Shown: in pieces, positions 58,297 through 63,018 of the stretch
Layout of the letters: the number at the start of each line of letters is the position of its first letter
How positions within the stretch are numbered: the first letter of the stretch is position 1
Source: Candidatus Hodarchaeota archaeon
Lineage (GTDB): Archaea; Asgardarchaeota; Lokiarchaeia; Sigyniarchaeales; SOKP01
DNA: 64,000 bases
Assembly (NCBI GenBank): GCA_048886685.1
Contig: JBHLKM010000009.1
Span: 32,001-96,000 of the forward strand
Direction: 5' to 3'
Notes under the pieces: generated by a model
Seen by the model: only the letters and a program-made list of their open reading frames with translations
Database searches by the model: none
What the model was told of the DNA's origin: nothing
Made by a program: the position numbers and the translations under genes

Positions 58297-58713
58297 TTAT
58301 TGACCTTGTACTTGAACAAAAACTCTTCTATTTCGAGGCCCATCATATTCGGCAAACATAATACCTTGCCATGTTCCAAGCATTAATCTTTTTTCATGAA
58401 TTATTATTTCAACGGAATGTCCGGTTAAAGTACATTTGATGTGAGCATCTGAATTCCCTTCTCCATGCTTATATGAGTACCCTAATCCCCCACCTTTAGG
58501 GATTACTTTTCCTAAGAAATTGGAAATATCTTTTTTTACAGAAGGATCGGCATTTTCATTAATCGTTATTCCTGCGGTTGTATGAGGTATGAATATTCGA
58601 CATACCCCCTCTTGGATGTTAGCATCTCTTACGATTTTATGCACTTCATTAGTTATATCTAGAAGGATTTCTCTCTCTGGAGTTTTAAGCCTAAATTCTG
58701 CAAATTTAATCAT
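58297..58713 (-). CDS. yjbQ: YjbQ / UPF0047 family protein
   Basis: PHTTAGITINENADP, HGEGNSDAHIK, LGTWQGI..EYDGPR. Confidence 0.92.
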   Translation of the reverse strand: MIKFAEFRLKTPEREILLDITNEVHKIVRDANIQEGVCRIFIPHTTAGITINENADPSVKKDISNFLGKVIPKGGGLGYSYKHGEGNSDAHIKCTLTGHSVEIIIHEKRLMLGTWQGIMFAEYDGPRNRRVFVQVQGQ

Positions 58714-58758: not shown

Positions 58759-59526
58759 CTATTTATCAAAAGAACCATGCTTTCCTTTTCCTTGAATGAA
58801 TGCTTTACTTCCTATTAAGTGTTCTCCAGTTTCTAATGTTTTTAACCCATATTCAAATTCTTTTTCCATTGCTTTTTTAATGTCTAATCCAAACTGAATA
58901 TAAGTTGATAACCGATCATTTCTCATACAACTCTGAGGAAAATTTGCAATTTCTCGTGCCAATTTCTCAGCTTCTTGTCTTGATTGACCGTTATCAACAA
59001 TTCGGTTAGCAAGTCCCCATTTAAAAGCTTCTTCCGCATTTACAGGTCGTCCTGTAAGAATCATATCCAGAGCTCTACTTAATCCAATAAGTCTTGGAAG
59101 CCGTACAGTGCCACCATCAATCAAAGGAACACCAAATCTGCGACAAAAAACACCAAATATGGCATCTCTTTCAACGACACGTATATCACACCATAAAGCA
59201 AGTTCAAGACCTCCCGCAACCGCATATCCAGCTACTGCAGCTATAACAGGTTTGGATAATTGTAATCTAGATGGACCCATTGGACCATCTCCATCTTTTT
59301 CTTTTCGATTCCCTTGTCCATTAGCTATATTTTTCAAGTTTGCTCCTGAACAAAAAGTGCCATTTGCTCCCCAGAGAACAGCAACTAATGCCTTATTATC
59401 TTTTTCAAATTCTCTAAATGCATTAGCAAGCTTATCCGCTGACTGTCTATCTACAGCATTTTTAACTTCAGGATTATTAATTATGACTGTATAGACAGGA
59501 TAGTCTATTTCAATATTAATTGGCAT
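58759..59526 (-). CDS. Enoyl-CoA hydratase/crotonase
   Basis: FCSGANL, GPMGPSR, AVAGGLELAL, GVFCRRFGVPLIDGGTVRLPRLIG. Confidence 0.92.
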   Translation of the reverse strand: MPINIEIDYPVYTVIINNPEVKNAVDRQSADKLANAFREFEKDNKALVAVLWGANGTFCSGANLKNIANGQGNRKEKDGDGPMGPSRLQLSKPVIAAVAGYAVAGGLELALWCDIRVVERDAIFGVFCRRFGVPLIDGGTVRLPRLIGLSRALDMILTGRPVNAEEAFKWGLANRIVDNGQSRQEAEKLAREIANFPQSCMRNDRLSTYIQFGLDIKKAMEKEFEYGLKTLETGEHLIGSKAFIQGKGKHGSFDK

Positions 59527-59568: not shown

Positions 59569-60657
59569 TTATTTCTGATTTTTTAGATATACATTCATAT
59601 CAACCATAGTACTTGTTCTAATTAAGGCAGCTTTAAGAAATTGGAATCCAATATCATATGTGGATCCATCACCCCCTATATGAATGACGTAGGGAACTTC
59701 ACCATCAAATTGACCTTTACTTTTACGGATTTTATAAGCTGTACTTATTGCTTCGGCTATCGTTGCTCCTGATTCAAATAGATGATGAACCCAAGGAACT
59801 CTCCAAGATGTTACATTATCTTTTGATGTGGACACCTCTGTACAAGAGGTATTATTTACATAAACTATATTATGGCCAGCTACCGCTTGGGCCGCTGTAG
59901 CTAATTGATTTAAAACCATTCCAGCACCACATCCTGGGCAGAGACCATGTCCGGGGAATAAGTGCGTTTGAGGTTCTAAAGTTTTACGATTTACTCTGTA
60001 AACATCAATAGGTTTTTCTGCTCCAAAAGTTCGAATTAATCCTTTTAATTTTTCATTTCTTTGCTCTGTATAATAGATTATCTCATCGATTTCTTTCTCC
60101 ATAAATTTTGGTTTAAATAAATGCCGAAATCGTCCCATTGATCTCAAATACTCTACAAATTTGTCTTTATCAATATCTAATCCTCGATAATAAGAGAAAG
60201 TTGGAATACCATCTTTCACACGTATGGTGTATAAGGGCCAATAACCACAATCAGTAGCTAGCTTTGATATTTTCACAGCATCTTCAGAAGCATGTCGCCA
60301 ACCTCTCATACAATCCGAATAAGCTTGAACGAAAGCAGATCCGCTTGTTTTTAATGCTTCAATTATTTTTCCCATAAAATCATTAGGATACGCTGGGTTA
60401 ACAGTTGCTAAAAATAATGAATTTGAACCATAAAAACCAAAAGGAGTTACAAGGTCTTGCTTTACTCCAACCTTCCCAGGAATTTTTTCTCCTGCGGGAC
60501 CAGTTGTAGTTGATGCATACGGAGGAGTTCCCCCGCTTTCTTGGATACCAGTATTCATGAATGCCTCATTATCATAATTCAAAAACAAAACATTGCTTTT
60601 TCCTTCTCTTGATAAAATATCTTCTATTTTAATAACATTTCTCTCTGGTTGCGACAT
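59569..60657 (-). CDS. porB: Pyruvate/2-oxoacid:ferredoxin oxidoreductase beta subunit, circularly permuted
   Basis: All PorB motifs are present in swapped order: YDNEAFMNTGIQ...RFRHL first, then GHGLCPGCG...GGDGSTYDIG. Confidence 0.88.
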   Translation of the reverse strand: MSQPERNVIKIEDILSREGKSNVLFLNYDNEAFMNTGIQESGGTPPYASTTTGPAGEKIPGKVGVKQDLVTPFGFYGSNSLFLATVNPAYPNDFMGKIIEALKTSGSAFVQAYSDCMRGWRHASEDAVKISKLATDCGYWPLYTIRVKDGIPTFSYYRGLDIDKDKFVEYLRSMGRFRHLFKPKFMEKEIDEIIYYTEQRNEKLKGLIRTFGAEKPIDVYRVNRKTLEPQTHLFPGHGLCPGCGAGMVLNQLATAAQAVAGHNIVYVNNTSCTEVSTSKDNVTSWRVPWVHHLFESGATIAEAISTAYKIRKSKGQFDGEVPYVIHIGGDGSTYDIGFQFLKAALIRTSTMVDMNVYLKNQK

Positions 60658-60658
60658 C

Positions 60659-61888
60659 TTACATCTCCACCCCCAAAATTTTTGATTTTGTTTCCCTTAC
60701 ACCGAGATACATATAGAGCCTCCCTTTCATATCTGTTACTGATTCTATCTTCTTCTTAGCAATATCAAATTCATCTCTTGTAACATCACGTCCTCCAAGA
60801 CCAACAATAAAACTCCTAAATATGGTTCCGAGAGGATATAATGCCGTAGCAATTGACATTGAAAATGGAGGTAAGAGCCCATTTAATGAATCTGACTTTT
60901 CCAAAATTATAAGCTTCTCAATATTGTATTCCTCAACAATTTCCCGTAGCTGTTCATGAGGAAATGGGCGATATGCACGTATTTTAATAAGACCAATATC
61001 TCTATTTTTTGTCATCCAACTAATAATATTACCACACATAGAGCCCATTGTTAGAAAAGCTGTTTTTGAAGAATTATCTAAATTGAATGTTTCAATTAAA
61101 CCGTATTTTCTTCCTGTTGCTTTAGCAAATTCTTCAAATGAATTTTTCATAATACCTAAGACTGGTTCTTTTTCCTCATCAAGTCTCTTCCTACCTTCCA
61201 TAAAGTAATCAGGGGTCACAATTCCACCCCACGTTCCTGGTCTCTCAGGAGTAATGTAGTGTCTTGGCTTCTTTGGAGTTAGCTGCCTGACAATCTCATC
61301 GGGAATTAATGTTAATTTTTGTACAGAATGCGAAATAATAAAGCCGTCATGAACAAACATCGTGGGGAAAAGAGAATCTTCTGAAATCATTACAGATAAA
61401 ATTGCTGCATCGTATGTTTCTTGTACGTTTTCCGATACAAAACAATTCCATCCTAGCTCTGAATTAGTTTGGGTAAATTCCCAACTGTTCCAAATTGATA
61501 GATTTGGTGAATTAAATGCTCGAGCACTTATCAGCATTGTTAAAGGAACTCGCCATCCCACCGCCATGGGTAAAGCTTCTGTCATCAATAAATAACCTTG
61601 AGATGCCGTAGCTGTAAAAGTTCTAGCTCCAGCAGCGCAAGCCGCAGTTGAATAACTTATTGCAGCCAATTCTGATTCTACATTTATAAATGCTGCCTTG
61701 AGTCTCCCATGATGAACTACATCAGATAATCCTTCAACTGATTGAGTTTGCGGCGTTATCGGAAAAGCACATATGACATCAGGATCTGTTTGAGTTACTC
61801 CTCCTGCCGCAGCATAATTACCTATCATTGTAGTCTCTATAGGTTCTTTAATTTCTTTAAAAAATATCCTCATAGGTTCAATACTCAT
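60659..61888 (-). CDS. porA: Pyruvate/2-oxoacid:ferredoxin oxidoreductase alpha subunit
   Basis: AFPITPQT, VESELAA, TATASQG, HDGFIISH, YRPFP, GLGGRD. Start taken at the ATG at 61888. Confidence 0.92.
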   Translation of the reverse strand: MSIEPMRIFFKEIKEPIETTMIGNYAAAGGVTQTDPDVICAFPITPQTQSVEGLSDVVHHGRLKAAFINVESELAAISYSTAACAAGARTFTATASQGYLLMTEALPMAVGWRVPLTMLISARAFNSPNLSIWNSWEFTQTNSELGWNCFVSENVQETYDAAILSVMISEDSLFPTMFVHDGFIISHSVQKLTLIPDEIVRQLTPKKPRHYITPERPGTWGGIVTPDYFMEGRKRLDEEKEPVLGIMKNSFEEFAKATGRKYGLIETFNLDNSSKTAFLTMGSMCGNIISWMTKNRDIGLIKIRAYRPFPHEQLREIVEEYNIEKLIILEKSDSLNGLLPPFSMSIATALYPLGTIFRSFIVGLGGRDVTRDEFDIAKKKIESVTDMKGRLYMYLGVRETKSKILGVEM

Positions 61889-61901: not shown

Positions 61902-62900
61902 TTACTCTTCAGGCACAGCACATGATGCTGGACCTTGTTTTAATTGTTTACTTATGGCCTCTACAGGGCAAATATTTAAGCAATTCTGACAAGACTTACA
62001 ATGAAAGCTATCTATTCCTGACATATGCCATAAACCATCTTCACCTTTCTCTCTAATTATTGCAAAATCTGGACAAATGTACCAACATTGAGCACAATCT
62101 GTACACTTTTCTTCATCCCATATAATTTCCCATTCTCCCCAGGTTCCTGTCATTACTTGAGAACTTCCTACTTCAATTACATCTTCATCCCGATACCAAA
62201 CTCCCGCCTTATCTAGCTCTTTATAACCTGGAAGCCCTGGTTTTACCTGTTGCCAAGGTACTTTTGTATCTATTGAAAAATCCATTTCAATTCCAAGATC
62301 ATATACACATGTTTCTTCTATTGCTTGTTTAATTGCTTGGATATTTTTTCCTGCGAGTTCTCCTTTAAATCTTCTCATAATAGCTTCTGATAATTCATCG
62401 ACAGTAAAAATATGTGAAATCCGAATTAAGGCACCTAAGATAATTGTGTTTGTTATGTTTCTGCCTAATACATCTAAAGCTATTCTAGTTGCGTCAATCG
62501 TTGCAACATTAATATCTTTTCTATTAACAATATCTTGAATATCTTGTTGATTTAAAGAGGTGTTTACTATTAACCACCCGCCTTTAGGCATCCCTGCTAT
62601 AACATCAATTTCTCCCAGTAATGAAGGATCTAATACAGATACGAAATGTGGGCTATATACTTGTTCATTAGACCTTACCAAATCTTCATTTGCAGAAAGT
62701 CTTACATAACTTTCAGTAGGAGACCCCATTCTCTCTGCTCCAAAAAGGGGTTGGCAAACACCATAACCATAAAAAGCTTCCACGCATAAATTTGAGGCAG
62801 TCACACCTCCTTGACCTCCTCTCGCATGAAATCGAAGGTTTATAACGTGATCCTTTAACACTTCTTTTACTTGTTCTGGAGTTAACATTTTAAATAACAA
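61902..62900 (-). CDS. porC: Fused PorC(gamma)-PorD(delta) subunit
   Basis: RFHARGGQGGVT, FGAERMGSP, NTIILGAL, then TGTW..CTDCAQCWYICP and CKSCQNCLNICP. Confidence 0.9.
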   Translation of the reverse strand: MLFKMLTPEQVKEVLKDHVINLRFHARGGQGGVTASNLCVEAFYGYGVCQPLFGAERMGSPTESYVRLSANEDLVRSNEQVYSPHFVSVLDPSLLGEIDVIAGMPKGGWLIVNTSLNQQDIQDIVNRKDINVATIDATRIALDVLGRNITNTIILGALIRISHIFTVDELSEAIMRRFKGELAGKNIQAIKQAIEETCVYDLGIEMDFSIDTKVPWQQVKPGLPGYKELDKAGVWYRDEDVIEVGSSQVMTGTWGEWEIIWDEEKCTDCAQCWYICPDFAIIREKGEDGLWHMSGIDSFHCKSCQNCLNICPVEAISKQLKQGPASCAVPEE

Positions 62901-63018
62901 GTTTTTTATTTTAAATGAATATTTATAAAGTAAATCTTAGAAAGTAATTTAAGTTTTATACAATATTTTAAAGGTTTAGCTTAATAAATATGATGAAAAT
63001 TGACTAAAAATCAGATTA

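Follow-up and report, generated by a model that had tools for sequence, protein, structure and literature searches.

A circularly permuted PorB-like subunit of a probable 2-oxoacid:ferredoxin oxidoreductase in the Asgard class Promethearchaeia

2-Oxoacid:ferredoxin oxidoreductases (OFORs) are central to the proposed energy metabolism of Asgard archaea and to syntrophy models of eukaryogenesis, as set out by Imachi et al. (2020, PMC7015854). The described protein closest to the beta subunit considered here, in both sequence (163 bits) and fold, is PorB of the Methanosarcina acetivorans POR (PDB 9bt4, chain C). The two have in common the ThDP motif, four cluster cysteines and a partnership with alpha, gamma and delta, but the order of our protein is rotated, with the part equivalent to chain residues 118–282 coming first and that equivalent to residues 5–115 last. 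It also has ≈20 extra N-terminal and 15 extra C-terminal residues, and its gamma and delta partners are fused. The beta subunit of oxalate oxidoreductase from Moorella thermoacetica (5c4i, chain C), the second-best match, is a collinear chain that aligns to our protein in two non-collinear pieces; its alpha subunit has an Arg (P-I-R-P) at the position where the alpha subunit encoded beside our gene has a Thr, like PFOR. The nearest canonical relatives are the ≈326-aa PorB proteins of other Asgard archaea, encoded in porG-porD-porA-porB operons (loci L017–L020) and 40–46% identical per half. These sit on the same side of the tree and follow the same operon logic, but are collinear, have separate gamma and delta genes and are absent from the class described here. 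Two canonical paralogues from the same genome, P0122 and P0123, share the superfamily and the cofactor motifs, but are collinear, 35–37% identical per half, and fall in the opposite half of the tree. Circular permutation is known among ThDP families, where the PP-PYR-x order of the transketolase/dehydrogenase type is related in this way to the PYR-x-PP order of the decarboxylases (bioRxiv 10.1101/2021.03.21.436335). In those families whole domains were moved, whereas in our protein it is the PP (diphosphate-binding) domain itself that is cut, at a point that separates one half of the GDG...N motif from the other. No description of a permuted OFOR beta subunit, or of a PP-domain cut that splits G-D-G from the Asn side, was found in a literature search whose coverage mostly excludes subscription journals.

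The gene lies on the minus strand of the 64,000-nt stretch of Asgard archaeal DNA analyzed here (the window), at positions 59569–60657. As the initial annotation had reported, its ORF of 362 codons is unbroken, and its ATG (60657) follows the TAA of the alpha gene (60659–60661) by a single nucleotide. A Shine–Dalgarno-like run, GGGGGTGGAG, is found 8–17 nt 5' of this ATG; as read from the nucleotide sequence, the permuted beta gene is translationally coupled to the alpha gene. The protein opens with a new N-terminal tail (residues 1–21; 60595–60657) with the family consensus N-I-I-x3-D-L-L-x-R, predicted by AlphaFold to form a short strand and a short helix. Residues 22–193 (60079–60594) correspond to the canonical C-terminal half, and include the Y-D-N-E strand and N35, the putative Mg/diphosphate side of the ThDP motif, as well as a beta hairpin and C116 (in CMRGW), the predicted fourth Fe-S cysteine. 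Residues 194–227 (59977–60078) form the junction between the canonical C-terminal helix and the canonical N-terminal leader, modeled as a helix (187–211) followed by a strand (212–221). The canonical N-terminal half follows as residues 228–347 (59617–59976), with C240-x2-C243, C272, the motif W-x-V-P-W-V-H-H-L-F-E, and G-D-G (329–331) with its succeeding helix. Residues 348–362 and the stop codon (59569–59616) make up a new C-terminal tail, with a predicted helix at 352–359.

The initial annotation had read this ORF as a PorB with exchanged halves, the canonical second half leading, and matches to the PDB, to paralogues and to profiles all bear this out. In a phmmer search of the PDB, residues 228–347 matched residues 5–115 of 9bt4_C (6e-18), while residues 22–193 matched residues 118–282 of the same chain (4e-26), and 5c4i_C was likewise hit in two non-collinear pieces. 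P0122 (contig 7) and P0123 (contig 16) were used as references for BLASTP. Each gave two non-collinear HSPs, which on a head-to-tail concatemer collapsed, as had been predicted, into a single HSP (query 18–352). A canonical profile was built from 54 canonical PorB sequences and applied both as it stood and in doubled form. Against the canonical profile, all 21 family members tested split into two non-collinear domains; against the doubled profile, each of the 21 gave one collinear match, that of the window protein scoring 285 bits (E = 1e-87). The doubled-profile alignment runs unbroken across the junction, where the canonical C-terminal helix leads directly to the canonical N-terminal leader, and there is thus no foreign linker; the separate short linker originally proposed is in fact this helix fused to this leader. 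The profile overlap between the two chain ends amounts to only ≈5 positions. When 1.84 billion representatives were searched, the permuted family alone was collinear with the query among the matches listed. The other matches listed aligned in two stretches each, with a drop in score from 439 to 200 bits, and none was a collinear alignment to a canonical beta subunit, which is what the initial annotation had named as evidence against a permutation. On these alignments, the product of the ORF is a circularly permuted PorB.

AlphaFold models were compared for the window protein (model mfd690200e642; pLDDT 73.7, pTM 0.81) and canonical P0122 (model me59d0e41644f; pLDDT 88.2, pTM 0.90). The elements of secondary structure are common to both models, their order in one being a rotation of that in the other; the permutant also has a short strand followed by a helix at its N-terminal end and a further helix at its C-terminal end. 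The order of the elements places the cut where it had been proposed, in the loop between the helix that follows GDG and the strand that carries YDNE, and the Mg/diphosphate motif is therefore split onto the two chain ends. Confidence in the monomer model of the permutant was low at the ThDP loop (residues 32–67). A Foldseek search of the PDB returned PorB first, along with PFOR chains, with ≈210 aligned columns and TM scores of 0.41–0.50; the alignments cover one part of the permutant model because the aligner is sequential.

The permuted order is widespread in a single class. A word-indexed search found more than 100 full-length homologues, 54–91% identical, from many contigs and samples. We then surveyed the phylum, searching 398 species genomes for a collinear full-length match to the window protein. 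The permuted form was present in 108 of the 132 genomes of the window's family, in 17/19 from other families of its order and in 5/7 from the rest of its class, giving 130 of the 158 other species genomes of the Promethearchaeia. Across ≈239 genomes of other classes it was found in one (G075), in short contigs with sequences 83–87% identical to those of the window's family and in a bin with 8% contamination; we consider this case to be probable contamination rather than a genuine carrier outside the class. The initial annotation had called for a search of other Asgard genomes for the same order and had suggested a lineage marker. The order is indeed found in them, and the permutation does mark one class, as a clean and rare genomic change, but it is not a marker for Asgard archaea as a whole. 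The 24 family genomes in which the permuted gene is missing include some that are 98–100% complete, and the gene must therefore be dispensable. Some proteins with >80% identity to the window protein are labeled "Thorarchaeota" or "Hermodarchaeota" at NCBI. These labels conflict with genome-based taxonomy, and we took them to be submitters' names.

Exact look-up identified orthologues in three closed genomes: QEE14985.1 (DSAG12_00808) of Promethearchaeum syntrophicum, UYP46588.1 (NEF87_002873) of Ca. Lokiarchaeum ossiferum and MCF2138868.1 of Ca. Harpocratesius repetitus. All three species are placed in class Promethearchaeia in the NCBI taxonomy, and all three proteins are labeled "hypothetical protein". 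Imachi et al. (PMC7015854) assign the beta, alpha and delta/gamma subunits of POR (EC 1.2.7.1) to DSAG12_00808–00810, for which they give RPKM values in MK-D1 of 286, 372 and 314, respectively; the orthologue of the permuted beta subunit is thus transcribed in MK-D1. The rearrangement is not mentioned in the text or the accessible supplements of that paper. The beta subunit of an enzyme annotated as POR is permuted in the very class that holds every cultured Asgard archaeon, and a correct domain map is the first requirement for structural or biochemical studies of Asgard POR.

Both halves of the protein are under constraint. C116, C240, C243, C272, G329-D330-G331, Y28-D29-N30-E31 and N35 are invariant among the 21 family members, and the four cysteines align with the cluster cysteines of PorB, in agreement with the initial reading that the likely Fe-S cysteines and both halves of the ThDP motif had been kept. 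Among 12 same-genus orthologues, pN/pS was 0.10 overall, 0.06 for residues 22–193, 0.10 for residues 228–347 and 0.17 for the junction; the new tails gave 0.29 (N-terminal) and 0.13 (C-terminal). The permuted gene is under purifying selection. We considered the possibility that the rearrangement is an assembly artefact, or that the gene is a pseudogene, the decaying remnant of a tandem duplication. A few relatives do have stops or partial copies, and nothing specific points in that direction. Against it stand the recurrence of the same order in ≈130 independently assembled species genomes and in the three closed genomes, the low pN/pS (0.10), the invariant active-site residues and the transcribed orthologue, and we regard this explanation as practically dismissed. 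The permuted porB is fixed in one lineage and is not a one-off product of assembly.

Three minus-strand genes form a unit in the order gamma-delta fusion, alpha, permuted beta. The alpha subunit (POR_N + PFOR_II) is encoded at 60659–61888, with 409 residues from the ATG at 61888, where its homologues also start. The gamma-delta fusion, which combines a POR gamma domain with two 4Fe-4S ferredoxin motifs, occupies 61902–62888, with a probable ATG at 62888. The starts returned by the ORF finder, GTG 61921 for alpha and TTG 62900 for gamma-delta, are probably too far upstream; with the ATG starts seen in the homologues, the two genes are separated by a 13-nt gap and do not overlap. An A+T-rich, TATA-like stretch at 62918–62930, ≈30–40 nt 5' of the gamma-delta start, is a possible promoter for the operon. 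The order gamma-delta fusion, alpha, beta is kept in loci L006–L016, L021–L023 and L028, including the three closed genomes, and the fusion is the same in L021–L023 and L028. In the closed genome G277 (family f4), the operon is split: the permuted beta gene stands alone (C1:1502548–1503600), ≈540 kb from alpha (C1:2045958–2047169). A locus in another Asgard class (L020; G117:C1:1587500–1597500) holds canonical porGDAB next to a second OFOR set with a gamma-delta fusion of 309 aa, so the fusion either arose more than once or has moved.

In the window, two minus-strand genes (58297–58713 and 58759–59526) directly follow the operon on its 3' side; one encodes an enoyl-CoA hydratase (ECH_1), the other a protein of the UPF0047/YjbQ family. 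Proteins of this family have been reported to contribute to thiamine phosphate synthesis as a side activity, and the position beside a gene for a ThDP enzyme may be either significant or a coincidence.

The alpha subunit keeps the P-I-T-P-Q-T motif and an Arg that aligns with that of solved PorA, and has Thr at the position of the oxalate oxidoreductase Arg. A model of the alpha+beta complex scored 0.82, compared to 0.00 for the best of three controls; 58 of 80 solved complexes and 2 of 110 mismatched pairs attained the mark applied. At least 96% of the contacts agreed between runs, and the pLDDT of the partner was at least 86. Since similar complexes have been solved (9bt4, 5c4i), this pass may reflect likeness or memory instead of binding. 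In the model, all contacts of beta with alpha are predicted to fall in residues 262–358, including the helix after G-D-G, and residues 355 and 357–358 of the C-terminal tail would touch alpha.

The initial suggestion of a functional natural permutant is supported by the purifying selection, the conserved operon, transcription in MK-D1 and the predicted alpha/beta interface, and the permuted PorB is very probably functional. We considered whether the protein might have left OFOR chemistry, as a structural or regulatory subunit or as a ThDP enzyme that catalyzes a different reaction. The long stem of the permuted clade (1.41 changes per site) and the low family-model scores of all subunits would fit such a change, but the residue classes for ThDP, Mg and the proximal cluster are all invariant, the gene is coupled in translation to alpha with a gamma-delta gene upstream, and an interface with alpha is predicted, albeit one for which similar complexes had already been solved. 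We therefore judge it very unlikely that OFOR chemistry has been abandoned. With good confidence, the gene appears to encode a working beta subunit of a 2-oxoacid:ferredoxin oxidoreductase of the four-domain type, the PP domain of which is a natural circular permutant.

In such a working beta subunit, the chain would retain the PorB fold. The fourth strand of the central sheet, with Y-D-N-E, would come first; the canonical C-terminal half and the C-terminal helix would follow, leading with no foreign linker into the canonical N-terminus (CxxC), and the chain would close once G-D-G and the helix behind it had been passed. By homology, the Mg-diphosphate of ThDP would be held jointly by D330, close to the C-terminus, and by N30 and N35, close to the N-terminus, while C240, C243, C272 and C116 would hold the proximal [4Fe-4S] cluster. 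Cofactor geometry and enzyme activity are both inferred: the delta domain, with its two clusters, would receive electrons from the proximal cluster and hand them to ferredoxin, and the acyl group would be transferred to CoA. The permutant is a natural experiment in how far a ThDP/Fe-S active site tolerates changes in chain connectivity, which makes it useful to protein engineers and to studies of OFOR assembly. A more far-reaching reading, which we put forward only as a speculative one, is that a single event long ago re-wired the enzyme that serves the Promethearchaeia as their main pyruvate-type oxidoreductase: the permuted beta subunit would have replaced porB, would close the ThDP/Mg site with its chain ends and pack its C-terminal tail on alpha, and would differ from every studied OFOR in cofactor loading, assembly or stability, with a few members also needing removal of a 30–31-nt hairpin insert in the ThDP loop at the RNA level.

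A tree was made from the 21 permuted members, put back into canonical order, and 59 canonical sequences. The permuted sequences formed one clade (SH-aLRT 100) with a stem of 1.41 changes per site and short internal branches. The sequences nearest to this clade were the canonical PorB proteins of other Asgard classes, not P0122 or P0123. As judged from this tree, the permutation is ancient and of single origin. The best non-permuted matches in the window's class (≈1e-21 to 1e-27) were weaker than those in other classes (1e-30 to 1e-37), pointing to a replacement of the canonical orthologue by the permutant. Most simply, porB would have been duplicated once, in tandem and in frame, in the stem lineage of the Promethearchaeia and would then have lost its outer ends, with the permutant presumably taking the place of canonical porB in the Asgard porG-porD-porA-porB operon. 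No duplication intermediate was found among the relatives examined. Profile–profile comparisons of the N-terminal tail with the C-terminal half and of the C-terminal tail with the N-terminal half found no significant relics of the lost halves (probability 0.1–0.2%). A likeness of the C-terminal tail to Y-D-N-E-A-Y had been noticed by eye; it was dropped in view of this null result and of the ≈5-position overlap between the chain ends.

The assignment of a substrate is less firm. Against NF008819 (PorB), the protein scored 212.5 bits in two stretches, compared to a cut-off of 405, and the alpha subunit scored 303 bits on the PorA model, for which the cut-off is 550. The scores on VorB (NF008818), 175 bits, and on oxalate oxidoreductase beta, 183 bits, were also below the respective cut-offs, while Pfam TPP_enzyme_C was reached with 23.7 vs. 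21.9, over profile positions 72–150 only. The best-scoring families for the three subunits were PorB, PorA and POR-gamma, far under the NCBI cut-offs, which marks the enzyme as divergent in addition to permuted; for beta, the permutation and the divergence together account for the low score. Between these scores and the "hypothetical protein" labels, automated annotation of pathways can overlook POR in these genomes or score it wrongly. Of the eight POR_N genes in the genome of the window, two belong to canonical Por/Vor-type sets. The alpha subunits of these two sets score 403–408 bits on PorA, above the alpha of the permuted operon, and the permuted enzyme therefore need not be the pyruvate enzyme of this genome.

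It is conceivable, then, that a functional permuted OFOR acts mainly on 2-oxobutyrate or on branched-chain or aromatic 2-oxoacids that arise in the fermentation of amino acids, as a VOR-like or broad-range enzyme. The VorB and oxalate oxidoreductase beta scores (175 and 183 bits) are near that of PorB (212 bits), the MK-D1 orthologue was called VorB by Prokka, the genome contains two more Por/Vor-type sets, which score better on PorA, and MK-D1 is reported to live on 2-oxoacids derived from amino acids (Imachi et al., PMC7015854). On the other hand, PorB, PorA and POR-gamma are the top families for all three subunits, EC 1.2.7.1 was assigned both by KEGG and by Imachi et al. (PMC7015854), and the Thr of P-I-T-P in alpha is that of PFOR and not the Arg of oxalate oxidoreductase. 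Furthermore, several genomes of family f3 (G135 and G138 among them) have no other Por/Vor-type beta subunit at E ≤ 1e-20. A main substrate other than pyruvate is thus rather unlikely, and pyruvate is, with moderate confidence, the most likely substrate.

In four related genomes from three genera, the permuted porB carries an insert at one site in the ThDP loop, between the codons for G37 and I38 (L029 249–282 in G163; L030 229–262 in G272; L034 ≈378–410 in G271; L035 ≈266–300 in G159). The insert is 30 nt long, or 31 nt with a frameshift in G159, and contains an in-frame TGA or TAG, while the gene is otherwise intact. The insert forms a hairpin of 7–9 bp in which compensatory changes occur, and the hairpin has a CUG/CAG helix and an exon–exon helix on its flanks. 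This layout resembles a relaxed bulge-helix-bulge, and the insert may therefore be an mRNA mini-intron; alternatively, it may be passed by translational bypass, or the genes may be early pseudogenes.

Extra copies of the last 114–116 codons of the permuted porB were seen 3' of the gene in two genomes. In G271 (contig C60), two identical copies of the end (L027 3–347 and 1294–1638) flank a gene for a PIN-domain protein. In G178 (contig C42), a 78%-identical copy of the end lies 2.5 kb away, past FrhB-like and FlpD-like genes (L025 2550–2900 and 5433–6494). These extra ends look like the result of an element that integrated at the 3' end of the gene and carried its own replacement end.
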